From a virus: a stretch of 64,000 nucleotides of DNA. Positions 19,574 through 58,653 of this stretch are shown piece after piece. The notes beneath the pieces were generated by a model. The model was not told the DNA's origin, searched no databases, and saw nothing but the letters and a program-made list of their open reading frames with translations. The position numbers and the translations under genes were made by a program. How positions within the stretch are numbered: the stretch's first letter is position 1; every line of letters starts with the position of its first letter. The stretch lies in IMG/VR virus record IMGVR_UViG_3300037882_002282, positions 5,834 to 69,833 of that record. One strand, written 5' to 3'.

Positions 19574-20056
19574 CTATTTGTCCTTAAGATATAGTTCAGA
19601 TAAGTAGTATGGTATGTAGACACCTTTTTCTTTGGCTCTACTACCATAGTAAGGTAGAAAGTTCGTTTTTATTGCTTGTTTAAAAATCTCTAATAGATCA
19701 CCCTCTTTCGTCCTCTCTTCTATATTAACTGGTTCTGGTAAAAAACTTAGACATGTTTTATCGCGGATTAATTCGTGACCGTCATACAAAAAAATATGAT
19801 CTTCGCTGTACCCGATAGCACGGCACTTAGCCACGATATCACATATGATTATAAGCCGCACCCCATGCTCTGGCAACCCCAAAAATGTTGGGTTTCCTGC
19901 CTCGCCTATCGTAACCCCCTGTCTTGCCCCTTTTAACACGGTGTAAACCGTAAGTTCTTTTTCTGGGGTTAATAAACAGTAGGTATCCGAGTTAGCTTTG
20001 GTAAGAGATACAAAATATTTATTCTTAAGTAGAAAATTCTGAACCGACTGTTTCAT
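19574..20056 (-). CDS. Hypothetical protein
   Basis: 160-aa coupled ORF. Confidence 0.55.
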   Translation of the reverse strand: MKQSVQNFLLKNKYFVSLTKANSDTYCLLTPEKELTVYTVLKGARQGVTIGEAGNPTFLGLPEHGVRLIIICDIVAKCRAIGYSEDHIFLYDGHELIRDKTCLSFLPEPVNIEERTKEGDLLEIFKQAIKTNFLPYYGSRAKEKGVYIPYYLSELYLKDK

Positions 20057-21641
20057 TATATAAATTATGTTGCTTGCTTCTCATTTTACTTACAGTTTCC
20101 ACATTAAAGCTTCCAAACGAGTTATCTCTAGTACCAGTTAGATACAATACCGCCCTTTCTTTAAGTAGGTGTCCGTAAGTTTCTAGTGCGTCTGGAAATA
20201 CTGTAATGTTCTTAAGAACCCCAGTTTCGTCTTGAACAACTAGAAACATCATTTTTTGCCCAAGAGTTTTTCCACGTTTGATTGTGTGTTCCCGAATGGA
20301 CAATACCTCAACACCAAGAACAATATTCCTATACGTCTCCTTACGATTAGCGAACATATAACAGGTACAATTAACTTCTATATCTTCGTAATCCTCTACG
20401 TAGGTTGTAGTTACAGCTACTCCCAAGTAATGTTGTTCTGATTCTGTTTTACTATTTCCAGTGTCTTCTAAACTAATTGGGGGGCGTTTTAAGGTTATCA
20501 ACAAATCTTGTATCTTCGACGTTCTACTTTTATTAGCGGCACCGCCACCCAATTTCTTGGGAATACTCAATCTGTCTAACAAATCCTCGAAATCGCCCTC
20601 ATAATTATTCTTACACCATTCTTTTTCTTTTTCTGTAAGTTGTTGATAGATTCCATACTCGTACTTCATCCTAGCTCTTGGTACATCCAAGTAATCTAAG
20701 GCACCACAACCAATCAAAGCTTCAAAGTTAGTTTTTACTATTTCATCTGAGAGGAAAATTAGGGTTTCTAACCAGGACCACTCATTTTGTTTCTTATTCA
20801 ACTGAGATGTGACGGAAGCCACTCCCATAAGAAGTTTTTCTAAATTAGACTCACCGAATGATCTAACAGATTCATAACCGAAATAAATTACTTTGTCTCT
20901 AGCCTCAAAAGACCTGTTTAAATGCCTAAGGTCTGGTGGGCGAATATCTATACCGCCTAAGCGGGCATCAGTAACTAATTCTTCTAGCTCTGCTTGTGGG
21001 TCAATTTTCAAATGCGACTTGGATAACCAGCTTAAAAAAAAGAAATCTGTATACAAAACCTTAATATAAGCACAATAATAGCTTAATAAAGCATATGCGA
21101 TTGCGTGACTACGATTAAAACTATATCTTTGACTTGCTTCAATGTTTTGAAATAATACGTCGGCTACTTCTTGTGATATAATGTTATTTTTAACTACTCC
21201 TTCCATAAAGTTTAATTTAACTTTAGCCATTAGTTCTGGTATTTTTTTACCGCAAGCTTTCCTTAATTCATCGGCCTGTTTTAGATTAAAACCAGCAACT
21301 AAACGACAAATTTCCATTCCTTGTTCTTGATATAGAATAAGACCAAAAGTATCTTTTAATACAGGTTCTAGAACTGGATGAGGATAATCTACTTCTTCCT
21401 CCCCAGAATTACGATCTACATAATGTTGAGTTACTGTTTTATCGCCGATATAAGCCTCTAAACTTCCAGGTCTTATTACACTGATTAGATCAGCAATTTG
21501 TTCTATACTTTTAGGCTTAATTTTTTTCGAGTAGCTTCGACCCAGTGGACTTTCCAATTGGAACACGCCCTTACATAAACCATTGGCTAAAAGTTCCCAT
21601 ACTCTTGGTTCGTTAAGCGGAATATTATCTAACGACAACAT
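20025..21641 (-). CDS. dnaE: DNA polymerase III alpha subunit, C-terminal part (fingers, HhH, OB)
   Basis: GVFQLES, RPG, ILYQEQ, ADELRKA.GKK, YSFNRSHAIAY, E..YLG, OB fold. Confidence 0.92.
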   Translation of the reverse strand: MLSLDNIPLNEPRVWELLANGLCKGVFQLESPLGRSYSKKIKPKSIEQIADLISVIRPGSLEAYIGDKTVTQHYVDRNSGEEEVDYPHPVLEPVLKDTFGLILYQEQGMEICRLVAGFNLKQADELRKACGKKIPELMAKVKLNFMEGVVKNNIISQEVADVLFQNIEASQRYSFNRSHAIAYALLSYYCAYIKVLYTDFFFLSWLSKSHLKIDPQAELEELVTDARLGGIDIRPPDLRHLNRSFEARDKVIYFGYESVRSFGESNLEKLLMGVASVTSQLNKKQNEWSWLETLIFLSDEIVKTNFEALIGCGALDYLDVPRARMKYEYGIYQQLTEKEKEWCKNNYEGDFEDLLDRLSIPKKLGGGAANKSRTSKIQDLLITLKRPPISLEDTGNSKTESEQHYLGVAVTTTYVEDYEDIEVNCTCYMFANRKETYRNIVLGVEVLSIREHTIKRGKTLGQKMMFLVVQDETGVLKNITVFPDALETYGHLLKERAVLYLTGTRDNSFGSFNVETVSKMRSKQHNLYNETVGSEFST

Positions 21642-21682: not shown

Positions 21683-22375
21683 TTATTCGACATTAACCTT
21701 CTCTGGTTTCCATTTTACCTTCTTAGATGTTCGTCTAATTAGATTCATAAATCTAGTTATTAATTGTGCTGTTACCTTACAGTCTTCAATTGCCTGATGG
21801 GCACCTGGAGTTTCTATACCAACCAACTCACAAATAGTAGTTAACTTAATATTCTGTACACGATTATCATCCTCGAAGTGGTACCAAACTAGGTCCATTA
21901 AGTCTAATGTGCGGAAACTACTAAATAGAGTGTTATTCTGCCGTTCGTCTTCCCACTGCCCAAACTCTTTACAAATTCTATCTACAATTACCTTATCAAA
22001 ATTTAGAACATTATATCCAGCTAAGATAGGAGCGGTATAACTATTCTTCTTGTAATTATATTGTTTCACATAATCTGAAAACTGTTTCCAGACTACATTC
22101 AATGGGGGAGCTAGGAGAACGTCACGTTCAACGTTATAGGGGTGTCCGCCCGTCTTTTCCTCGCCCACACACAACTTATTTACCTTGAGGGCTCCATCCT
22201 CTACAGCTTCGATATTAGATGGGCGTATGAGTGAGCAGAATTCCGACCCTGGAATAATATCTAGGGAACGTGAATGTATAGCAACCGCTGCCAACTCTAA
22301 AGGTTGCGTAGTATATGGGTTAGCCGACGAACTTTCAAAATCTAGGCAGATTATTGTATTATAGTTCAAAGGCAT
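21683..22375 (-). CDS. DEDDh 3'-5' exonuclease (DnaQ/epsilon-like)
   Basis: LDFES, AGYNV.NFD, AHQAIED. Confidence 0.88.
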   Translation of the reverse strand: MPLNYNTIICLDFESSSANPYTTQPLELAAVAIHSRSLDIIPGSEFCSLIRPSNIEAVEDGALKVNKLCVGEEKTGGHPYNVERDVLLAPPLNVVWKQFSDYVKQYNYKKNSYTAPILAGYNVLNFDKVIVDRICKEFGQWEDERQNNTLFSSFRTLDLMDLVWYHFEDDNRVQNIKLTTICELVGIETPGAHQAIEDCKVTAQLITRFMNLIRRTSKKVKWKPEKVNVE

Positions 22376-23256
22376 CTTTTTTTATCTCTAATTTGTTGTG
22401 TAGTTAGGTTAAAATGTGTTGCTATATCTCTTACAGATTTTTGTTGTAATAAAAAACTTTCTAATTCGTTAGTCATCTCTGGTGTCCATAACCTATATTG
22501 TAATTTAATTGTAAAAAATCTTTCTTTTTTCCTAGCTAAAGAAAATCCACTATTCTTATACAAAATATCTCTTAACGAGAGACTTTCATTAACCCCAAAT
22601 TGTAAACGAGGGGGTTTCATATCATAATTAATTGTTCCTTTTAAAGAAAGAAGACTCTGTAAATTGTGTAAAAACTCGACCGATTGACACGAGAATATGG
22701 AAACATAGTTCTTGTTATCTTGCTTATAAATACTCCCATCACCATCAAAAAACCCTCTAACATAGTCTCCCACAAATTCTTCTGGTATATCAAAGTCTAT
22801 CCTATGTTTTCCAGTTTTGTTTGGAAAAATACTATATTGAAGTAGAGAGTTTTTAATTTGTTTTGAGAATATTCCTATTTTGGATGAATAATATTTTTTA
22901 CCAGTTCGTTTGTCATCGTGTTCGTAATGATATATATTACCATCTGGATAAATTTTAGATAATATATATTCTAAAACACATTCGTCTTTCCTAGCAACTT
23001 CTACGTATAAGTAGGCTCTTTTCTTGTGAACATTACCGTCCGCAGTTATGAACCCAAGAATGTAAGCCATGTCCGACGACCAACTATCAAAAAAATCGTG
23101 GGCCACATTGTTTCTAGACCAATATATTCCAAATTTCTTAAGATATTTTCTAACTATAGCTGGATGACAGTTAAATTCTTTGGCTATCTCTTCTGGTCGC
23201 TTTTCACGAATAATCTTTTCTAAATACTCTTTGGTTAGAGGAATGGCTTTGGGCAT
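22366..23256 (-). CDS. LAGLIDADG homing endonuclease
   Basis: YILGFITADG and YVRGFFDGDG; AGGAG RBS before MPKAI. Confidence 0.9.
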   Translation of the reverse strand: MPKAIPLTKEYLEKIIREKRPEEIAKEFNCHPAIVRKYLKKFGIYWSRNNVAHDFFDSWSSDMAYILGFITADGNVHKKRAYLYVEVARKDECVLEYILSKIYPDGNIYHYEHDDKRTGKKYYSSKIGIFSKQIKNSLLQYSIFPNKTGKHRIDFDIPEEFVGDYVRGFFDGDGSIYKQDNKNYVSIFSCQSVEFLHNLQSLLSLKGTINYDMKPPRLQFGVNESLSLRDILYKNSGFSLARKKERFFTIKLQYRLWTPEMTNELESFLLQQKSVRDIATHFNLTTQQIRDKKRCL

Positions 23257-23297
23257 TTCTGACTCCTTTTGGTTATACGTATAGACTTCTACTATAC

Positions 23298-23305
23298 TAT
23301 ACACC
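23298..23305 (-). promoter_or_regulatory. GGTGTATA phage promoter-like motif
   Basis: Recurrent intergenic motif; upstream of the LAGLIDADG gene. Confidence 0.65.
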
Positions 23306-23319
23306 AAAACTTACCCACT

Positions 23320-24885: not shown

Positions 24886-26742
24886 TTATTGACTGGCATT
24901 TATTAACCTTAGTGCCTTTCCTAACTTATCTAAACTAGCTACAGCCAAACAGTCTACTTTACATAATCCTGCCGTTTCGGCAGACTTTAAATCCCAACCA
25001 CAAATTTGTTGTTTGCTTTTAGAGTCATAAATCATTGGGGCGATATCTACTAGAGGACGATCACAAATGATAACTCCAGCAGGGTGACGAGAAGAATTGC
25101 GTTTTGTCCCCTCTAACTTCATAGCGTGCTTAAAATAGACGCCTAAATCTCCCTCACACTTTGGTTCAAACGTTTCACGATCAACCTCACAGAATTGGGC
25201 TAGTTTGTCAGTACGGTTCTGCAATGCCCAACGAATAATAGAATGATCTTCAATTTCTTGAATTTCATCAATTACTTCGGCTTCACCAGGAATGAACTTA
25301 CTTACTTCATTAGATAGATCGAAGGAAACATCATAAGCTCTAAATACATCCTTAAGAGCCCCCCGACCCATCATTCTGCCGTATGCGGCAATTTGACAAA
25401 CATTATTTCTACCGTATTTTTCTCTAATGTATTCTACTACGCCCTCTCTTGCACTAACCTCAAAGTCTACGTCGATATCTGGTAAGGCAACTCTATCGGG
25501 TGTGTTACGACCATCATTATAGAAACGTTCAAAAATTAGATTATACTTAATGGGGTCAACACGAGTAATCTTGGTTAGATAGGATACGAGACACCCGCCA
25601 GCACTACCTCTACCTGGACCCGTTAAGATACCCTGGTTTGTGGCCCAGTTTACATAATCTTGCACTACTAGAAAATAAGGACTGAGCCCAGCTTTTTCAA
25701 TAACGGAGAACTCCATCTCCATTCTATTTCTATATTCTGGGGTATCTAAATTCTTTTCTGCTATGCTATCATTACATAACTTACGCAGGTATTCATTTGA
25801 GTTTAGCCCATCAGGACAATCAAACTTGGGCATAAACGGCTTATTGGTAATATCATAGTTATCGCACATAGACGCGATAACAAAAGTATTCTCTATTTCC
25901 TCTTGTGTATTACACTTGCTCATTCGTTCGTGCGATGGAATATAAAATTCACCGTGTCCGCTGAAAAATGCCCTGAACGGAATATCTAATCCTTGTGCCA
26001 AACCACGCTTTAATTCTGGCACACTCTTTTTAATAGCAGACGACAGAATGATTTGGTGAAGCTCAATATCATCTGGTTTGGTATAGTGGCTGTCAGCAGT
26101 TGCTACTACTTTCTTTCCGTTCTTTTTTGCCCAGTTTCGTAAATTATCTCCTAATACTTGGCAGATGGGAGTATTTTTAGCATCAATAGTTTGGATTTCT
26201 ACAAAGAAGTTATCCTTACCAAAGATATCTTCGTGTAAACCAATCGACTGTTCTACTTCCTTTTCCCAATTTTGTCTAACTTTATTATTTTCGTCCAGTA
26301 GAACATCAGAGACGGTACTACCTAAATGCCCCGAAAAAGATATTAAATTCTTATTTGAGTTTAATTCACCAAGTCGTTTTAGGCTAATTCTGGGTTTGTA
26401 ATAATAGTTTTGTGGTTTGTTGGTTTCATCTATAATCTTTAATAGAGTTTTCCATCCGTTAAAATTTTTGGCTAAAACTACAAGATGAGATAGATTCCTA
26501 TTTTCTGGAGTTTGGTCAGATGGGTCATTTTTACATATATACAATTCTACCCCTTGAATGGGGATAATTCCTTCTTTCTTACAAGCAAGCTGGAATTCTA
26601 CTGAACCGTTTACTCCACCGTGGTCCGTCAAGGCAATATGAGTTTGTCCTAATTCTTTTGCTCGTTTAGCTATATCAGTTGGCTTACTTAATCCATCGAG
26701 CAAGCTGTAGTGGGAGTGCTGGTGACAGTTAATATACATCAT
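24886..26742 (-). CDS. dnaE: DNA polymerase III alpha subunit, N-terminal part (PHP + palm/thumb)
   Basis: HQHSHYSLLDG, TDHG, GPGRGSAGG, FERF, PDIDVDF, HPAGV, GLCKVD. Confidence 0.95.
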   Translation of the reverse strand: MMYINCHQHSHYSLLDGLSKPTDIAKRAKELGQTHIALTDHGGVNGSVEFQLACKKEGIIPIQGVELYICKNDPSDQTPENRNLSHLVVLAKNFNGWKTLLKIIDETNKPQNYYYKPRISLKRLGELNSNKNLISFSGHLGSTVSDVLLDENNKVRQNWEKEVEQSIGLHEDIFGKDNFFVEIQTIDAKNTPICQVLGDNLRNWAKKNGKKVVATADSHYTKPDDIELHQIILSSAIKKSVPELKRGLAQGLDIPFRAFFSGHGEFYIPSHERMSKCNTQEEIENTFVIASMCDNYDITNKPFMPKFDCPDGLNSNEYLRKLCNDSIAEKNLDTPEYRNRMEMEFSVIEKAGLSPYFLVVQDYVNWATNQGILTGPGRGSAGGCLVSYLTKITRVDPIKYNLIFERFYNDGRNTPDRVALPDIDVDFEVSAREGVVEYIREKYGRNNVCQIAAYGRMMGRGALKDVFRAYDVSFDLSNEVSKFIPGEAEVIDEIQEIEDHSIIRWALQNRTDKLAQFCEVDRETFEPKCEGDLGVYFKHAMKLEGTKRNSSRHPAGVIICDRPLVDIAPMIYDSKSKQQICGWDLKSAETAGLCKVDCLAVASLDKLGKALRLINASQ

Positions 26743-34847: not shown

Positions 34848-34891
34848 TGTTTACCCCTTCTATTAGACTATAAACATATTCTATAGTCTAT

Positions 34892-41063: not shown

Positions 41064-41550
41064 GTTTAGCCTTAGTAGTGCATTCCTCTAGATCAATTTC
41101 ATGTTGAATAACTTGTTCGTCTGTGAAACCCTTAATTGGGCGAACGAACTTACCCATAAGCTTCAATCGTTCAGCTTTCTTTTCGTGAAAGAGTTGGCTA
41201 ACTGCGTCACCCTTATCTGAAGCTGCTTTGTTCATTACAGCCACATTTCCATTATCTGGCAACTCTTCTCGTTTACCAATAGCGGAATAACCAATTTGGT
41301 GTTTGCTTCTAGGGCTAACAGGATTTACTGGGCCACTAGTAGTGGGAAGTGGAGATTCGTCCACAACCTCAGTAGTCTTTTCAGCTACTCCTAGATGTTT
41401 GTTAATCGCGTTAACCGATCTACCAAGCTGTTTTCCAATTTCTTCTGCTGATAGACCTTGTGATGATAATTGACCAATTTGATTAATTTCGTCTGCTGAT
41501 AGTCTACCACGTTTAACAGAACCAGTAATAACTTTAGTTTCAACTGCCAT
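41050..41550 (-). CDS. HTH protein
   Basis: GLSAEEIGKQLGRSVNAINKHL. Confidence 0.6.
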   Translation of the reverse strand: MAVETKVITGSVKRGRLSADEINQIGQLSSQGLSAEEIGKQLGRSVNAINKHLGVAEKTTEVVDESPLPTTSGPVNPVSPRSKHQIGYSAIGKREELPDNGNVAVMNKAASDKGDAVSQLFHEKKAERLKLMGKFVRPIKGFTDEQVIQHEIDLEECTTKAKRGKK

Positions 41551-41797
41551 TATCAGACCTCTCTTTTTTTTGTGTATGAACTAGAATTTTTTCACCATCA
41601 ATCCTCATACTAACGACGATGGATTTAGTTGTTCCAACAATAGAATATTTTCCTTGGAACGCTCGTTCAAAGCTGGTACCAGAACATTTCCAGCACTGAG
41701 CTTGAACTTTAGAAACGTCTTCCGTAACCTTAGTGACGACTACATTTATTAAGCTTGTTCCACAACTGGAACACTTAAGCTTTTCTTGGCTAACCAT
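41540..41797 (-). CDS. Zn-ribbon protein
   Basis: CSSCG...CWKC. Confidence 0.55.
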   Translation of the reverse strand: MVSQEKLKCSSCGTSLINVVVTKVTEDVSKVQAQCWKCSGTSFERAFQGKYSIVGTTKSIVVSMRIDGEKILVHTQKKERSDNGS

Positions 41798-43073: not shown

Positions 43074-46000
43074 TTAGAATAAATCGCATTTTCCGCCAGC
43101 ACACGCGATCTCATTAAGTGGTTTAGTATCATCTTTGCTCTCGATAAGTAACTCATAATCAACTTCTTTATATTCTCTACTAAGATCAACAAACTTTTTC
43201 CAGTTATAAACATCTTTGAGGCAATAAGTCATTTGTTTTAGATCGCCCTCAAAATAACGTTCGGCAAACCTAAAAGCTTTGTTTAAAAAATGTAAGTGAG
43301 TACTGTTTGACTCTTTGTTGCCTAAAATGATATCACACGCTGCCCACAAATCGCCCCCAAACGTATTTAATGCGGCCTCAATAATTCCACTACAAAAGAT
43401 GCCACCATCACCATATAGGTTAATAATCTCTTTGGGTGTGAAGACGGCTGTAAATGGAGCTTGTGGATAATCCTTATCTCCACTCTGAGGCAATAGAGAT
43501 ACACCAGTTAGAAATTTCTTATTATGATAAATGAAATCTGCTACAGCATCCCACTCATCTTCTTTGACTACAATAGTGTTGCTTACATTATGATTCAACC
43601 AGGGTTGAACACACAAGTCTCTGTTGGTGCCAGTTAACACCCAGTTTTGTTGTGTTGACACAACAGCTTCTAATAACTTAACTGCTGATACCTGATTTTT
43701 AAGCTTAGCTCCATCTGGCACTTCTACCGTAAAGGAAATAACCCCATCCGTTCCATTAGCACTCCAAACCGAATCCTCACACGCAAACGGGTTTATAGAC
43801 TCGAAGAACTTATATGGAGCTTCGTTCTTGTTAGATTGTACATTACGAATATATCGTTTAGCGTGGTGTGGATGGATGCCACTACTAGTACCTAAAATAC
43901 AACTACTAGTTCCCTCTGGTTTAATACAAGTAGTTCGTGCTGCTTGTCTAATACCAATCTTGGCTGCTATTTCCTTATTTACAGCCTTGACTATTTTAGC
44001 CCCAGCTTTCTGAATCCTCTCATCTAGGGTAATTTCTGGCTTTTCCATAACGCCAGTCATAGATACTCCAATCAAAGCTTCTCGTCTTACAATTCTTTCT
44101 GTTACTTCTCCAAGGTATGGAAATGAGTCAAATCCAGCTTGTAGTGTTCCAATAATAGCAGCAGCTTTACAAGCCTCATAAAAGTCCTCTTCGTTAGTTA
44201 CTTTGGAGCAATTAATCGTGCTAAGATTACACATTTCCCAGCCAGAATTGCCTTGCTCGTCATAACCGTAAAGTCCGATTTCGACACAATTTGATACATC
44301 ACATCCTTGAGTCCAGTATGTATGACTTTTATTATCTACCGTAATATCGAAAACCTCTTCTCTAGAAACTAGCTCAACTTTAATAATGTCATAATTAGTT
44401 TTAGGATTTCTGTTTTCTGGTAGAGAAGATATAATCTTACTAAGTTTCTCGTTTTTGTATGATTGTAAGAATCCAACTATCCGTTGGAACTTGCTAGCAT
44501 CAGTAGAGATATTTAAATCATAACTTTCTTTGCAAACATATTCGCCATTTTCAAACTTAACTTTAGTAGACTTATTTGTTGTAAAGTATGATCTGATACC
44601 AACTGAAGACAACATCATTTGTACGTCTTCAATTAACCCCAACGATGATGACTTTAAGGTTACTCTGTTTCCGCAAATACTACCATTCGCACTGTATAAA
44701 CCACGTAGAAAACCAACAACTTTACCACAATCGCCCGTTAAAAATCTGTTAGGAACTCTACGCTCGTATGTATATGGTAATTCAGAATTGGTAATAGTAG
44801 TTTGAACTTCAAAAGCGGTATCGGATAAACCTGGGCGATATGTTGAAATTAGAGAACTAATTTTGTGATTAAAATAATCTTGGTCATTTTGTCCGATATG
44901 TAGATAAACTAAGTTATTCGACGCTTTGTGAACAGCACCATCTCCAATTACCAATCCGTCAATAATATCTTGTTCACTAACTACACCCATTTCTGGGAAT
45001 AAACCAGGAATAATATCGATAGATTCTGCATTACCAACTTCTACTTTAACTCCATTAGAAACAATACGATGTTGCTCTGTTCCATAAAAAATACCAGCGG
45101 TTGTTGTATATTTATATACGTTTTTAGTACCAGTTGACCATTTGTTTACTACTTGGGTAAACCCTTCCTTACTCCAAATGTAGTCACCAATTTGAACATC
45201 TTTTAATTCTCTAATACCTTTTTTAGTAAGTAATTTAGCCCATCCTGGTTGACAAGGGTTTGTTAAAGTTTCTTTATCTTCGCACCAAAAGAAACCAGGT
45301 TCGCCACAATCTCTGGTAGACTGGATAATCTCTTGGAATTGTTTCTTTGAAACTTCACTTCTTACTAAAACTACAGAATTATTTGATCTACCCCTTTGTG
45401 GATTAGTATAGAACCAATTACCAGTTTTTGCTTTCATCATCTCTTCATCTTCAAGAGAGAATAAGCAAATAGTACTAGACCTGCGAACACCACCAGAAAG
45501 CACTGCATCACTAGCGTGCATGATAATATCATAACAATCAATTGGTCTTAAAATGCCACCATAATCGTTAGCAACATCGTCCAATATGGTTTGAATTTTT
45601 TCTAAAGCTCGTTTAAGAGGTTCTGGGCCTGGAGCGGTTCCACTACAATCGGAAAGGGGGGAACCTTCTGGGCGAATTTCTGAGTAGTCGAAATCTACAA
45701 AAGAATAAGCATACTCAGGAAAGATTGCGTTTTGGGGCGAAAAATAAGATGAGATTAAAACTCCTAGAGCATCACCCCAACCTTCAATACTATCTGGTAC
45801 AACAAACACTTTCTCGTCCCGTATAATTTTACTACGGTGCATTTGTGGAAGTTTGGCAACATGGTGTTTCTGTACGGAAAACCCAGTTCCACAACCGCAC
45901 AACAAAAGAAAAAACGCTTCCTGAAAAAATCTTAATCTATCACAGTATGAAGACGTACAATTATAAATTTTCTCATTGCGTTTTAGAATAGGTCGTCCAC

Positions 46001-46214
46001 CAAATTGCAAGGCTCTTTGCGAGCCGAGAACCCGCTTTTTTGCCATCTGATCGTATGCCCAATTAATATCCTCTTTAAGCTCAGGATATTTCTGGAGCAT
46101 CATATTCCTAATTCTATCTACACTTTCTTTCCATGTTTCTCTACGTTTCTTTTCTTCGTTATATCGGGCATACCTTGAAGTGAAGGTGTATTTTTGTAGC
46201 TCTTTAAGTGACAT
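43074..46214 (-). CDS. nrdJ: Class II (B12-dependent) ribonucleotide reductase with intein
   Basis: RRETW, RALQFGG, YNC, GGVRRS, GEPG, NP-[intein]-CVEI, CNL, TCIKPEGT, C-terminal CAGGKC. Confidence 0.92.
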   Translation of the reverse strand: MSLKELQKYTFTSRYARYNEEKKRRETWKESVDRIRNMMLQKYPELKEDINWAYDQMAKKRVLGSQRALQFGGRPILKRNEKIYNCTSSYCDRLRFFQEAFFLLLCGCGTGFSVQKHHVAKLPQMHRSKIIRDEKVFVVPDSIEGWGDALGVLISSYFSPQNAIFPEYAYSFVDFDYSEIRPEGSPLSDCSGTAPGPEPLKRALEKIQTILDDVANDYGGILRPIDCYDIIMHASDAVLSGGVRRSSTICLFSLEDEEMMKAKTGNWFYTNPQRGRSNNSVVLVRSEVSKKQFQEIIQSTRDCGEPGFFWCEDKETLTNPCQPGWAKLLTKKGIRELKDVQIGDYIWSKEGFTQVVNKWSTGTKNVYKYTTTAGIFYGTEQHRIVSNGVKVEVGNAESIDIIPGLFPEMGVVSEQDIIDGLVIGDGAVHKASNNLVYLHIGQNDQDYFNHKISSLISTYRPGLSDTAFEVQTTITNSELPYTYERRVPNRFLTGDCGKVVGFLRGLYSANGSICGNRVTLKSSSLGLIEDVQMMLSSVGIRSYFTTNKSTKVKFENGEYVCKESYDLNISTDASKFQRIVGFLQSYKNEKLSKIISSLPENRNPKTNYDIIKVELVSREEVFDITVDNKSHTYWTQGCDVSNCVEIGLYGYDEQGNSGWEMCNLSTINCSKVTNEEDFYEACKAAAIIGTLQAGFDSFPYLGEVTERIVRREALIGVSMTGVMEKPEITLDERIQKAGAKIVKAVNKEIAAKIGIRQAARTTCIKPEGTSSCILGTSSGIHPHHAKRYIRNVQSNKNEAPYKFFESINPFACEDSVWSANGTDGVISFTVEVPDGAKLKNQVSAVKLLEAVVSTQQNWVLTGTNRDLCVQPWLNHNVSNTIVVKEDEWDAVADFIYHNKKFLTGVSLLPQSGDKDYPQAPFTAVFTPKEIINLYGDGGIFCSGIIEAALNTFGGDLWAACDIILGNKESNSTHLHFLNKAFRFAERYFEGDLKQMTYCLKDVYNWKKFVDLSREYKEVDYELLIESKDDTKPLNEIACAGGKCDLF
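44289..45254 (-). mobile_element. Intein with LAGLIDADG endonuclease (322 aa) in nrdJ
   Basis: Starts CQPG after NP and ends VFDITV...HTY...VSN before C(+1); motifs GLVIGDG and FLRGLYSANG. Confidence 0.9.
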
Positions 46215-46578: not shown

Positions 46579-46891
46579 GGTACTCTTCCTTATAGAACAG
46601 AATTAGTTTTAATACATCATTATTACGCTTATAAAGATAGTAATAGTCCGATCTTATATTAGCAAAGATATTAGGCATTTCCCAGCTTCCATCAACGGGT
46701 GAACTATAAACCATCATTTCTGGTGATTCCGCAACTATCATCTTAGTATTAGAATCATTTACCAAAATATACTTGCCTTTGTATATTTCATGAACATTAT
46801 ATTTTATGTATAGTAGATTATTGGTAATATGATTAAATTTGGTAAGTCCAGTTTTTTTTACTTCACTAAGATATAAAACGTCGTTTATCAC
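46571..46891 (-). CDS. Hypothetical protein
   Basis: Coupled ORF. Confidence 0.45.
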   Translation of the reverse strand: MINDVLYLSEVKKTGLTKFNHITNNLLYIKYNVHEIYKGKYILVNDSNTKMIVAESPEMMVYSSPVDGSWEMPNIFANIRSDYYYLYKRNNDVLKLILFYKEEYRG

Positions 46892-47361
46892 GGTTTCATG
46901 CTACTATATACAGTAGGTTTAGAACTCTTTTTGAAGACGACAACAGCCATAGGTTGGGGCAATGGCCAGGCTGCCCCTGCAAACCTTAACCGTCCCTCAA
47001 TGAATCTAATTTCTGCTGCTTTCATACAAATTCTGTACCACCACTTAACATTGGTTCTGGCGGGCAGAAGTGCTACAATAGTAGTACCAGCCGTTTGGCT
47101 TGCTTCATACGCTTTGGCAATCCAATCTTCCCACGAGAATCCGTCTGAGTTAAATGGAGGATTTAGGAAACCAGTTTTACCAGTCCAATCTTGTTGGAGA
47201 GCATCTTGACTTTCAGAAAAGAAAGTAGAAACCTTCTTATTTTTATCACTAGCTGCTAGGTCAATATCGAAATTAAATTCTTTATCTAGCTTAGAGAATA
47301 AATCTATAGGCGTTTCCCAATCAATCTTAGTTGTCTCGAATTTTGATTTAATGTCGGTCAT
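46888..47361 (-). CDS. dam: Phage DNA N6-adenine methyltransferase (Dam family)
   Basis: WETP..LF..L..EF.F..DLAA, NPPF, LLPART..W, IRFI.GRL.F. Confidence 0.88.
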   Translation of the reverse strand: MTDIKSKFETTKIDWETPIDLFSKLDKEFNFDIDLAASDKNKKVSTFFSESQDALQQDWTGKTGFLNPPFNSDGFSWEDWIAKAYEASQTAGTTIVALLPARTNVKWWYRICMKAAEIRFIEGRLRFAGAAWPLPQPMAVVVFKKSSKPTVYSSMKP

Positions 47362-47395
47362 TATGTTTCCACGATTTGGTGATCTAACTCGTTAC

Positions 47396-47433
47396 AAAAA
47401 AAAGGCCCGCAGTATTCTATAGTACCGCGAGCC
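47396..47433 (-). terminator. Rho-independent terminator
   Basis: GGCTCGCGGTA-loop-TACTGCGGGCC followed by T8. Confidence 0.75.
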
Positions 47434-47595
47434 GTAAAATTCTAGTGGCGATTTGTGTTGATTCCACCACGATTCGGCTTTGAGCCAGCCACCGACCGCC
47501 GATGACTTACATTTTTCGTGATGCTAGTTTAACGCTGAGCCATCGCCACTGTACCCAAGTTGCATAATGAACTTACGGGAATAATCGGCCAGCAA
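47396..47595 (-). ncRNA. Candidate structured ncRNA or cis-regulatory leader
   Basis: GC-rich, ORF-less, bounded by the promoter motif (47602-47609) and a terminator; nested stems AGTGGCGAT/ATCGCCACT, ATCACGA/TCGTGGT, TCGGC/GCCGA. Confidence 0.55.
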
Positions 47596-47601
47596 TAGTA
47601 T

Positions 47602-47609
47602 TATACACC
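47602..47609 (-). promoter_or_regulatory. GGTGTATA promoter-like motif
   Basis: Upstream of the candidate ncRNA. Confidence 0.65.
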
Positions 47610-47620
47610 GTTAGACTATT

Positions 47621-48166
47621 TTAATCTCGCTCAAACTTGAAAATCTTCATTCCAGTCATTTTTAGAAATAACAAAGAGTTGGGGTCTTTGCTTACAGAAG
47701 ATAGCATACTACCTCCGTCACCATTATTTCCATTAGCTGAAAAGTCGTTATAGATAATTTTAGATATGTTAAACGACCAAAGATCAGTTAGACACTGGAA
47801 GCATGGGAAACCAGTGAGATACAGAATTGCCCCAGATTTAGGACGACGCTGACAGTTGAGAATGCAGTTTTTCTCCGCGTGTTTTATCCAAATATATTTA
47901 TCTGGGCGAAGATTGGGAAGATATTGATCTGGTAATCCTCTAGGGAAACTATTATATCCAGTTGATATGATATAATGATTTCTGTCTACTAGAACTGCCC
48001 CAACTTTTGTTTGGGCGTCTTTAGAGCGTAAGGCTACCTGCTCTGCTATATTAAGAAAATATTGGTGCCAATCTAATATGTCTTCATGTTGTTGGCTTTT
48101 TTTCTGTTCTTTGTAGAACTTAACTATTTGGTCAGTTGAGGCAGCTTCTACTTCTATTAGTTTCAT
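47621..48166 (-). CDS. dCMP deaminase
   Basis: RSKD..T.VGAV, TGYN, HAE.N, PC..C. Confidence 0.9.
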   Translation of the reverse strand: MKLIEVEAASTDQIVKFYKEQKKSQQHEDILDWHQYFLNIAEQVALRSKDAQTKVGAVLVDRNHYIISTGYNSFPRGLPDQYLPNLRPDKYIWIKHAEKNCILNCQRRPKSGAILYLTGFPCFQCLTDLWSFNISKIIYNDFSANGNNGDGGSMLSSVSKDPNSLLFLKMTGMKIFKFERD

Positions 48167-54456: not shown

Positions 54457-54467
54457 ATTATCTAAAG

Positions 54468-54539
54468 TGGCGACTACTGGAGTTGAACCAGTTTTTGCAC
54501 GTAATGAGCGTGCTTAGATTACCGAACCTTCCAGTCGCG
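54468..54539 (-). tRNA. tRNA with CAT anticodon (Met/fMet/Ile2 unresolved)
   Basis: Acceptor CGCGACT/AGTCGCC; anticodon arm GCACG-CTCATTA-CGTGC; T arm ACTGG-TTCAACT-CCAGT. Confidence 0.75.
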
Positions 54540-54608
54540 TTAAATATGTGGTCTACCTACGTTTCCACTTTTGCAAAGTTTTCGTTTCCAAAGTATAACC
54601 ACACAGAA

Positions 54609-54681
54609 GTGCCAGGGGGGATTACGAGTCCACCATCTTCACCCTAATCAGGGGTGCCGTTCTCGTCTTAAACTACCTGAC
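54609..54681 (-). tRNA. Degenerate tRNA-Ile(GAT)-like gene
   Basis: GTCAGG/CCTGGC acceptor; CACCC-CTGATTA-GGGTG anticodon arm; aberrant T arm. Confidence 0.5.
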
Positions 54682-54693
54682 GTGTGGGGGATT

Positions 54694-54771
54694 AAACGTG
54701 TGATCGCTTAAGAGCCCCGTGCAGGGCCTACCCCGAACATAGGTTCGGATCAGTCCTACGTTTGGGGGACT
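54694..54771 (-). ncRNA. Candidate structured RNA between tRNAs
   Basis: Stems AGTCC/GGACT, AAACGT/ACGTTT, GATC/GATC, CGAAC/GTTCG, CCC/GGG. Confidence 0.4.
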
Positions 54772-54819
54772 ACCAATAATAGAAAAAATGCTAGCACTCC
54801 TATTACCAGTTGTCCCGAG

Positions 54820-54892
54820 AGCCACGAACAGGCATCGAACCCGCAACCCGCTGCTTACAGGGCAGCCGCTCTACCAGTTGAGCTACCGTGGC
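54820..54892 (-). tRNA. tRNA-Thr(TGT)
   Basis: GCCACGG/TCGTGGC; GCTC-AACTGGTA-GAGC; GCTGC-CCTGTAA-GCAGC; GCGGG-TTCGATG-CCTGT; no encoded CCA. Confidence 0.88.
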
Positions 54893-56898: not shown

Positions 56899-57454
56899 TA
56901 TTTTCCAGTACGTTTCTACATAAGGTTACTATCCTGCTAATGTTTTTAAGACTACAATTATGTTGTTCAGCCAATTCCTTACTTTTGTATCCGTTATGAT
57001 ATGAAAAGAAAATATCTATATCTCTGTCCTTAATTCCATGTTCTCGTAATCCTTGGACCAAGCTTTCCTTACAACAATTAAAGGATAAATCTGTATTTTC
57101 ATTTTTTGGGTGATTAAAATCTGCGTTTTGTAAGTCATTAAGTGGATCGCTTAATTGACTAAAACAAATAGTTCTATGACCGTTTATTTTTTTGCTAAAA
57201 GCTGATAAGTTTTGATTTATTAACCATTCTATAGTAAGTGATAAATAAGTTTGGAAATTAGACTTATCTGGCGAATGATTGCTGATTGCTAACCACAACC
57301 CTTCGTTTTTAAACGATTCAAATATATCCCGATCTATACTATAATATTTTAGTTTTAGAAGTTCAATAACCCTTATATTTTTGGGGTCATCTAGATATTG
57401 TCTGAATTCTTCATTTGAGATTTTACTATATTTTCTTGGAGTGCGTTTTCCCAT
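56870..57454 (-). CDS. Phage sigma-70-like factor
   Basis: GLW.AI..H.PDKSNF.TY (region 2); Y...ELAE...CS...ISR (region 4). Confidence 0.75.
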   Translation of the reverse strand: MGKRTPRKYSKISNEEFRQYLDDPKNIRVIELLKLKYYSIDRDIFESFKNEGLWLAISNHSPDKSNFQTYLSLTIEWLINQNLSAFSKKINGHRTICFSQLSDPLNDLQNADFNHPKNENTDLSFNCCKESLVQGLREHGIKDRDIDIFFSYHNGYKSKELAEQHNCSLKNISRIVTLCRNVLENNATRTELSL

Positions 57455-58597: not shown

Positions 58598-58653
58598 TAT
58601 TTGAGTTCCTTTTGAGTTGGTTGTCCCTAGTAATAATACACCGAACGGAAAGA

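Follow-up and report, generated by a model that had tools for sequence, protein, structure and literature searches.

A 259-nt intergenic gap (47362 to 47620) in a 64,000-nt stretch of phage DNA, hereafter called the window, was found to hold a compact unit on the minus strand, which is the coding strand. The unit comprises a recurrent promoter motif, a predicted folded RNA, and a strong intrinsic terminator. Our preferred reading, which we advance tentatively, is that of a leader in which transcription stops prematurely, close to the promoter, so that access to the gap-free 12.5 kb of dam-nrdJ-recA-helicase genes is gated and a small RNA is set free. The window corresponds to bases 5834 to 69833 of a 69.8-kb IMG/VR virus record with a completeness estimate of 46%.

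In the gating model, the GGTGTATAAT promoter would fire near 47593, transcription would yield a folded, GC-rich product of ~195 nt, and the majority of polymerases would halt at the strong intrinsic terminator ahead of dam, with transcripts of the block arising by read-through. The unit would in this way set, and may time, the output of the replication and nucleotide block, while the terminated 195-nt RNA would be released as a by-product, perhaps one that has since acquired a separate role. Read-through might be set by a fixed leak, by a phage or host factor, or by pairing of the RNA's own 5' end with the terminator arm. The motif, the terminator, the gene map, and the stability of the rod are observed; where transcription starts, whether it terminates in vivo, and that the block needs read-through are predictions.

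Organization of the promoter, RNA, and terminator unit

The features of the locus, listed in the direction of transcription, are as follows.

47621-48166, minus strand: dCMP deaminase gene (dcd; Pfam PF00383, E 1.2e-18), which ends the upstream block
47600-47609, minus strand: promoter motif GGTGTATAAT, with TATAAT at 47605-47600 and no -35 element
47579-47593, minus strand: 5' single-stranded end of the predicted RNA, the first 14 nt being unpaired in the minimum-energy fold
47554-47579, minus strand: predicted 5' hairpin CCC..AAGUU / AACUU..GGG, present in the minimum-energy and centroid folds (pair probability, 0.54)
47444-47550, minus strand: predicted rod in which 9 bp close the structure, an internal loop of 19/13 nt leads to an inner stem of 7 bp, and two hairpins cap the end (pair probabilities, 0.57 to 0.92)
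47434-47443, minus strand: A/U-rich linker AGAAUUUUAC ahead of the terminator, read from the sequence
47396-47433, minus strand: intrinsic terminator, with a stem at 47433-47404 of 11 pairs (7 G-C), an 8-nt loop, and T8 at 47403-47396
47362-47395, minus strand: 34-nt spacer from the T tract to the dam start, with no promoter motif and a weak Shine-Dalgarno sequence
46888-47361, minus strand: dam, encoding a phage-type N6-adenine methyltransferase (Pfam PF05869, E 2e-29), which heads the downstream block
43074-46214, minus strand: nrdJ ORF (1046 aa) for a B12-dependent ribonucleotide reductase, beyond dam and two small ORFs

Downstream of nrdJ lie genes for an HNH endonuclease and a RecA-like protein, followed by a DnaB-like helicase and others. 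The N-terminal piece of a split DnaE-like polymerase has at most 34% identity to any GenBank phage protein, and the phage represents a deeply divergent, apparently lytic lineage without cultured relatives. The polymerase occupies two minus-strand ORFs about 3.2 kb apart (20025-21641 and 24886-26742), with a LAGLIDADG/HTH ORF (22366-23307) between them, an arrangement that could reflect a split gene or an intron or other mobile insertion. The nrdJ ORF also carries a LAGLIDADG domain, at residues 499-553 with ribonucleotide reductase domains on either side, and this insert has the appearance of an intein that includes a homing endonuclease.

The promoter is the best-supported part of the unit. 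The original prediction had assigned the RNA a promoter motif of its own, and GGTGTATAAT is indeed present at 47609-47600 (minus), with a copy number in the window that lies beyond chance: allowing at most one mismatch, 19 copies were found against 6.5 expected, a count reached in none of 100 shuffles. Because all seven exact copies (33103, 34890, 47600, 51304, 53931, 54447, and 56227) lie on the minus strand, the coding strand, and in intergenic gaps, GGTGTATAAT is, to judge by its distribution, the phage's own recurrent promoter motif. Near copies occur at 58633, 54899, 30102, and 23296; tRNA-Thr is directly preceded by a copy with one mismatch, and the sites are A/T-rich on their upstream side. 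The TG of the motif is one base nearer TATAAT than in the classical extended -10 element. From the usual spacing of sigma-70-type promoters, transcription is predicted to start at 47593 (range, 47592-47596), 7 nt past the -10 hexamer. For six of the exact copies, the distance to a Shine-Dalgarno sequence and start codon is 25-44 nt. Only the copy at 47600 departs from this pattern, being 238 nt ahead of the next start codon with a terminator in between.

That terminator had likewise been claimed at the outset, and a strong intrinsic one is present, its 11-bp stem being followed by eight T. The hairpin has a folding energy of -17.7 kcal/mol and pair probabilities of 0.93-1.0 in the full-length ensemble, and the terminator lies 35 nt ahead of dam. 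An 11-mer found in the terminator loop and in the leader at 34890, ACTATAGAATA, occurs nine times when one mismatch is tolerated. The expectation is 3.3, and 1 of 100 shuffles gave as many, which is too weak a signal to be retained. There is also a direct repeat (10 of 11 positions identical) between 47369-47379, in the dam ribosome-binding region, and 47467-47477, in the 3' strand of the inner stem, and AUCACGA could pair with either copy in read-through transcripts. By our own estimate about 0.26 such pairs of 11-nt repeats are expected by chance, and the repeat was rejected as not significant.

The predicted RNA is about 195 nt long. A perfect inverted repeat of 9 bp, 47444-47452 pairing with 47542-47550, closes the rod, which continues, in the predicted fold, through the inner stem AUCACGA/UCGUGGU (47522-47516 with 47472-47466) to terminal hairpins at 47487-47507 and 47476-47486. 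Both the closing stem and this inner stem had been part of the rod proposed originally, and the 5' hairpin, also proposed then, is at 47579-47554 in the predicted fold, but the two innermost stems of that proposal, TCGGC/GCCGA and GGTCGG/CTGGCT, did not survive; in their place, the minimum-energy fold has hairpins AGUCAUCG/CGGUGGCU and GGCU/AGCC.

Support for the predicted fold is uneven across the RNA. The 111-nt rod (47552-47442) has a z score of -3.3, and none of 300 dinucleotide shuffles was as stable, whereas the whole RNA (201-205 nt) has a z score of -1.7 to -1.8, which is not clearly beyond chance, and the RNA body minus its terminator has a z score of only -0.3. The two terminal hairpins have pair probabilities of 0.85-0.92, but the values drop to 0.5-0.65 in the inner stem, the 9-bp stem, and the 5' hairpin, and a competing helix, CGAUGGCU:AGUCAUCG, takes 0.14. 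The unpaired 5' end is a candidate strand of a closing helix or antiterminator, or alternatively a candidate sRNA seed.

The GC content is raised to 0.47-0.49 over 47350-47574 against 0.31-0.39 in the flanks, as had been noted, although the middle of dam also reaches 0.44-0.46. The statement that no credible ORF is present held: stop-to-stop frames span at most 43 aa, and none of the seven frames matches Pfam, a result that also led us to reject a decayed gene as the origin of the sequence. Leader-peptide attenuation was rejected as well, the AUG frames being only 13, 4, and 0 codons long and without a Shine-Dalgarno sequence. The sequence features of the unit are real, and the observation as a whole is partly confirmed.

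Homologue searches and related loci

A scan of the whole window against Rfam 15 (4227 models) at the gathering score gave a single match, a tRNA at 54820-54892. This was one of the checks proposed with the original prediction, and an identity with a known family was not found, since no family reached its gathering score in the region. With E values up to 10, the region matched sR16 (17 bits; cut-off, 70), Trp_leader (14.2 bits; cut-off, 41), and MIR821 (11.9 bits; cut-off, 249), and these three matches are noise. The cobalamin and 2'-dG riboswitch models were unlisted at E values up to 10; the original prediction, too, had named no matching riboswitch and had noted that B12-box motifs are absent. 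Short resemblances to a cobalamin core were set aside, as Rfam gives them no support. ARAGORN called no tRNA or tmRNA in the region. Elsewhere in the window it called a tRNA-Met at 54467-54539 (minus) that the Rfam tRNA model does not list at E values up to 1, and the ~280 nt separating the two tRNAs (54540-54818, minus) are noncoding.

Searches for the sequence itself were likewise negative. No match was obtained by blastn against GenBank phages, with the gap, with 3 kb around the gap, and again at E values up to 5, or by blastn against plasmids. An exact 20-mer and two purine/pyrimidine-degenerate patterns had no match in IMG/VR, nor had the two degenerate patterns in GTDB with one genome per species. 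Neither blastn nor nhmmer detected the RNA in 20 loci anchored on Dam relatives; a single-sequence covariance model of the RNA (R1) recovered only the RNA itself (188.7 bits) from the window and these 20 loci, and it had no match in 80 NrdJ-anchored loci and five whole viral records. The phage's own record holds no second copy. When the dCMP deaminase, a 350-aa ORF, and the DnaE-like polymerase were used as anchors, no near relative was found in IMG/VR.

Near-identical copies were found only in sequencing runs labelled as wastewater metagenomes, none of which is recorded as RNA, and the contigs are most likely DNA; the raw-read run contributed no aligned read. One contig of 1313 nt, 92% identical, covers 46717-48037, with 99 differences in all. 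Within the 259-nt gap it has three indels, at 47363, 47382, and 47394, each of them inside the 34-nt spacer, and the 225 nt of promoter and RNA have none; the chance of three out of three falling in the spacer if indels were evenly spread is (34/259)^3 = 0.002. This pattern, which comes from one contig, is the only apparent sign of constraint on the RNA. A second contig matches 47495-47611 with 1 difference in 117 nt and then continues into unrelated sequence just upstream of the promoter. Because the upstream flank diverges while promoter and RNA are kept, this suggests that the two travel together as a module. Two short contigs over the RNA show 1 difference in 150 and 1 in 117; these low values were not counted as conservation because a strain nearly identical to the window may explain them.

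Relatives of Dam with 30-53% identity were found at 4 loci in IMG/VR and 16 in metagenomes. In L002, L003, and L006, the three Dam loci with ORFs listed, only 36-65 nt lie ahead of the frame for Dam; a fourth, L007, has an upstream ORF that runs into this frame. The proteins encoded on either side in L006 and L007 show no relationship to those of the present phage. Among the 80 viral loci anchored on NrdJ (58-63% identical), dcd lies directly upstream of nrdJ in 60, and the gap between the two genes measures 110-164 nt in 58 of these.

Read by eye, the majority of 24 gaps between dcd and nrdJ (from L022-L101; L023:3359-3498 is an example) appear to encode a small hydrophobic peptide and not the 195-nt RNA. 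The ORF begins with a codon that overlaps the stop of dcd (..GGTGTATTATGA), its end (..ILNRR and stop) lies within the nrdJ Shine-Dalgarno sequence, and a GGTGTAT-like string in these gaps is coding sequence. Five gaps (L048, L068, L093, L100, and L101; e.g., L048:3384-3500) are without the small ORF and have in common GGCCC...GATTTATCATATC..TATGAC..AAATCA...GGGCC, possibly a conserved hairpin leader before nrdJ (n = 5, two of them nearly identical).

The closest NrdJ relative, at L022 (63%), has TAGTGTATAATACT immediately after the dcd stop codon and an ORF beginning 38 nt on, and the locus is without the RNA and without a terminator. This may mean that a promoter following dcd is old. Specific to the present lineage are the 195-nt RNA, the terminator, and dam, since at L022 a similar promoter-like sequence leads straight into a gene. 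The idea that GGTGTATAAT marks a promoter regime common to the relatives was dropped, as the two nearest NrdJ records contain only 1 and 3 copies.

Proposed read-through into the dam-nrdJ block and competing explanations

The gene arrangement was assessed on a crude map of the longest minus-strand ORFs of at least 45 aa over 30-60 kb. On this map, gaps in the stretch from 47361 to 34902 (~21 ORFs, 12.5 kb) all stay below 35 nt, the map's 198-nt gap at 41748-41551 falling inside ORF 41540-41797, and the same holds for the upstream stretch from 51274 to 47621 (8 ORFs). No copy of GGTGTATAAT with at most one mismatch occurs between 47599 and 34900. As a point against gating, promoters of other classes may lie inside coding sequence, where 42 consensus sigma-70 sites were counted, fewer than the 53 expected from shuffles. 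Most of the remaining gaps, of 43-78 nt, bear the promoter motif or a near copy. A 100-nt gap after ORF 56191-55667 bears a second terminator in place of the motif, and longer gaps of 251, 492, and 751 nt correspond to the tRNA region, an unexplained stretch, and an ORF dropped by the map. The 492 nt at 56899-57390 (minus) contain no coding-strand ORF of at least 45 aa in a region that is otherwise packed.

Because the 12.5 kb are without a gap or a motif, we infer that transcripts of the dam-nrdJ block must read through the terminator. Only two strong terminators were found on the minus strand over 40-59 kb, at 47433-47396 and 55618-55599. The second has an 8-bp G+C-rich stem (-16.6 kcal/mol) and T6 and follows ORF 56191-55667. 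The next gene, ORF 55566-54925, begins 32 nt further on, and since no promoter motif intervenes, it also appears to depend on read-through. The phage thus appears to tolerate read-through-dependent genes. An attenuator gating the downstream operon was one of the two interpretations offered originally, and it gains support from the 12.5 kb downstream that lack both a gap of at least 35 nt and a further copy of the motif. The order of the elements, promoter then terminator and not the reverse, also counts for gating, as do the unusual distance of the 47600 copy from its start codon, the indels confined to the spacer in one contig, the promoter and RNA kept together in another, the helix adopted by the prefix fold at 47425 (see below), and the precedents in Stx phages and 201phi2-1. 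No Q-like antiterminator protein was recognised among 30 window proteins compared with Pfam and PHROGs (20 of them from 41-54 kb), a scan in which most small ORFs match no family. Gating leaves the RNA body unexplained, because a gate needs no structured body of 150 nt. Two further points weigh against it, namely that the antiterminator pairing is no better than chance once any upstream window is allowed and that the unit is missing from L022.

A serious rival, although on balance an unlikely one, is a stand-alone trans-acting sRNA, the 195-nt product of which would pair with host or phage mRNAs. The free 5' end would then be the seed, the linker, terminator, and U8 would form an Hfq-type module, and the block to transcription downstream would be a side effect. 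The unit's own promoter and its own terminator with eight U fit this proposal, as do the first 14 nt, which are unpaired in the minimum-energy fold, and the retention of promoter plus RNA as a module where the upstream flank differs. The U count agrees with the seven or more T of Hfq-binding sRNA terminators, and RNAs of such short units can acquire sRNA functions, as illustrated by StxS (PMC5558911 and PMC7547250, respectively). However, against 157 phage translation start regions the best duplex reached -41.1 kcal/mol, which lies inside the spread given by 30 shuffled RNAs (mean, -38.2; best, -51.4 kcal/mol); no homologue or conserved seed was found in any collection searched; and the downstream block would be left with no recognisable promoter.

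It is also conceivable, though we regard it as quite unlikely, that the RNA has no function and that a plain terminator of the upstream operon is preceded by some 150 nt of leftover sequence, such as the scar of a recombination event or the remains of a gene. The element stands alone, without homologue in the collections searched, and the z score of the whole RNA is weak, both of which this explanation would accommodate. Against it, the other promoter-bearing gaps without a tRNA measure just 43-75 nt (crude map, 30-60 kb), the rod has its z score of -3.3, the GC content is raised, stop-free frames have no Pfam match, and the RNA shows no indels against three in the spacer. The compactness of the genome, together with the stability of the rod and the distribution of indels, makes a functionless spacer unlikely.

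The original prediction further pointed to a possible antiterminator switch. The 5' end, which runs from 47579 to 47593 or, with another start site, as far as 47596, can pair with 47427-47442 in a duplex of -16.0 kcal/mol that takes up 7 to 9 of the 11 bases of the terminator left arm, according to the start site, and this helix forms in a prefix fold stopping at 47425. In the full RNA, the terminated form (-60.9 kcal/mol) wins over the antiterminated one (-54.9 kcal/mol). With the 5' window fixed, a pairing as good is found in 1.6% of 2000 shuffles and in 0.6% of 1730 genomic 22-mers; when any 22-nt window of the shuffled 147-nt upstream region is allowed, -16.0 kcal/mol is reached in 99 of 300. 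The pairing claimed thus exists, but because about a third of these shuffles do equally well, it is possible and well placed, statistically unremarkable, and no evidence by itself.

On such a pairing one might build a riboswitch-like ON switch, in which a ligand or factor would stabilise the 47579-47593/47427-47442 helix, block the left arm of the terminator, and free dam-nrdJ; we consider this improbable. The helix in the prefix fold, as good in 1.6% of fixed-window shuffles, would be in its favour, as would a multi-branch, GC-rich domain closed by a terminal helix, which is the layout of an aptamer, and a nucleotide-metabolism operon downstream. These points are offset by the 99 of 300 shuffles that do as well with any upstream window, by the Rfam scan at E values up to 10, which matched no known aptamer class, by the lack of homologues in our searches together with pair probabilities that are only moderate, and by the absence of the element from relatives in which dcd adjoins nrdJ. 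It is correspondingly doubtful, in our estimation, that the hairpin-plus-rod domain is an undescribed sensor, either a riboswitch or a factor-binding leader, that turns on the replication and nucleotide block upon a cellular signal.

The original interpretation is partly supported. The unit of promoter, folded RNA, and terminator and the lack of an Rfam match stand, but the 6S-type polymerase decoy is unsupported: beyond a length of ~195 nt and a large internal loop nothing speaks for it, no 6S model was listed at E values up to 10, and the predicted fold is a three-way junction closed by the 9-bp stem and not a long rod round a central bubble, which makes a 6S-like RNA highly improbable.

Significance and comparison with known systems

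If the gating model is true, one 200-nt RNA unit sets the expression of ~21 genes of replication and nucleotide metabolism, which would provide a lytic-phage case of premature-termination control beyond the lambdoid and giant phages and supply a compact promoter/terminator pair. The value of the case is limited by its being effectively a singleton and by promoter-proximal terminated leaders and sRNAs being an already known kind. The unit of promoter, RNA, and terminator is of that known kind, with a sequence that is new and has no family.

6S RNA (RF00013 and related models) is alike in size, but neither its fold nor its Rfam models match. In transcriptional ON riboswitches, the 3' strand of P1 is common to the terminator. 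The present RNA resembles them in that a terminal helix would close a multi-branch domain and its 3' strand would overlap the terminator left arm, and differs in that it matches no known aptamer class and that its pairing is not above chance.

Hfq-binding modules include a U-rich stretch before the terminator. Like Hfq-dependent sRNAs, the unit would have its own promoter, a free 5' end, AAUUUUA at 47441-47435, and a terminator U8; unlike them, it has a body that is larger and more structured than usual. Terminators of Hfq-binding sRNAs have seven or more T (PMC5558911).

Long-read RNA sequencing of phage 201phi2-1 identified 11 small RNAs of less than 250 nt, 8 of which arise via premature termination in 5'UTRs (PMC11512511). 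The unit described here is like these sRNAs of the giant Pseudomonas phages 201phi2-1 and phiKZ in its length of less than 250 nt, in its predicted termination soon after the start, and in its position upstream of a gene, and it is unlike them in being predicted from sequence and in having no sequence relation to them.

A close architectural parallel is the PR'-tR' region of Stx phages, where an active promoter with a near-immediate intrinsic terminator stands at the head of a long promoter-less block and the short terminated RNA, StxS, is a by-product able to act as an sRNA (PMC7547250). The present unit differs in that no Q-type antiterminator or qut site was recognised here, in lacking sequence similarity, and in that the genes it would gate serve DNA metabolism and replication and not late functions or lysis. 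It shares with lambdoid PR'-tR' the arrangement of a putative promoter followed by an intrinsic terminator within ~250 nt and by a downstream block that is free of the motif.
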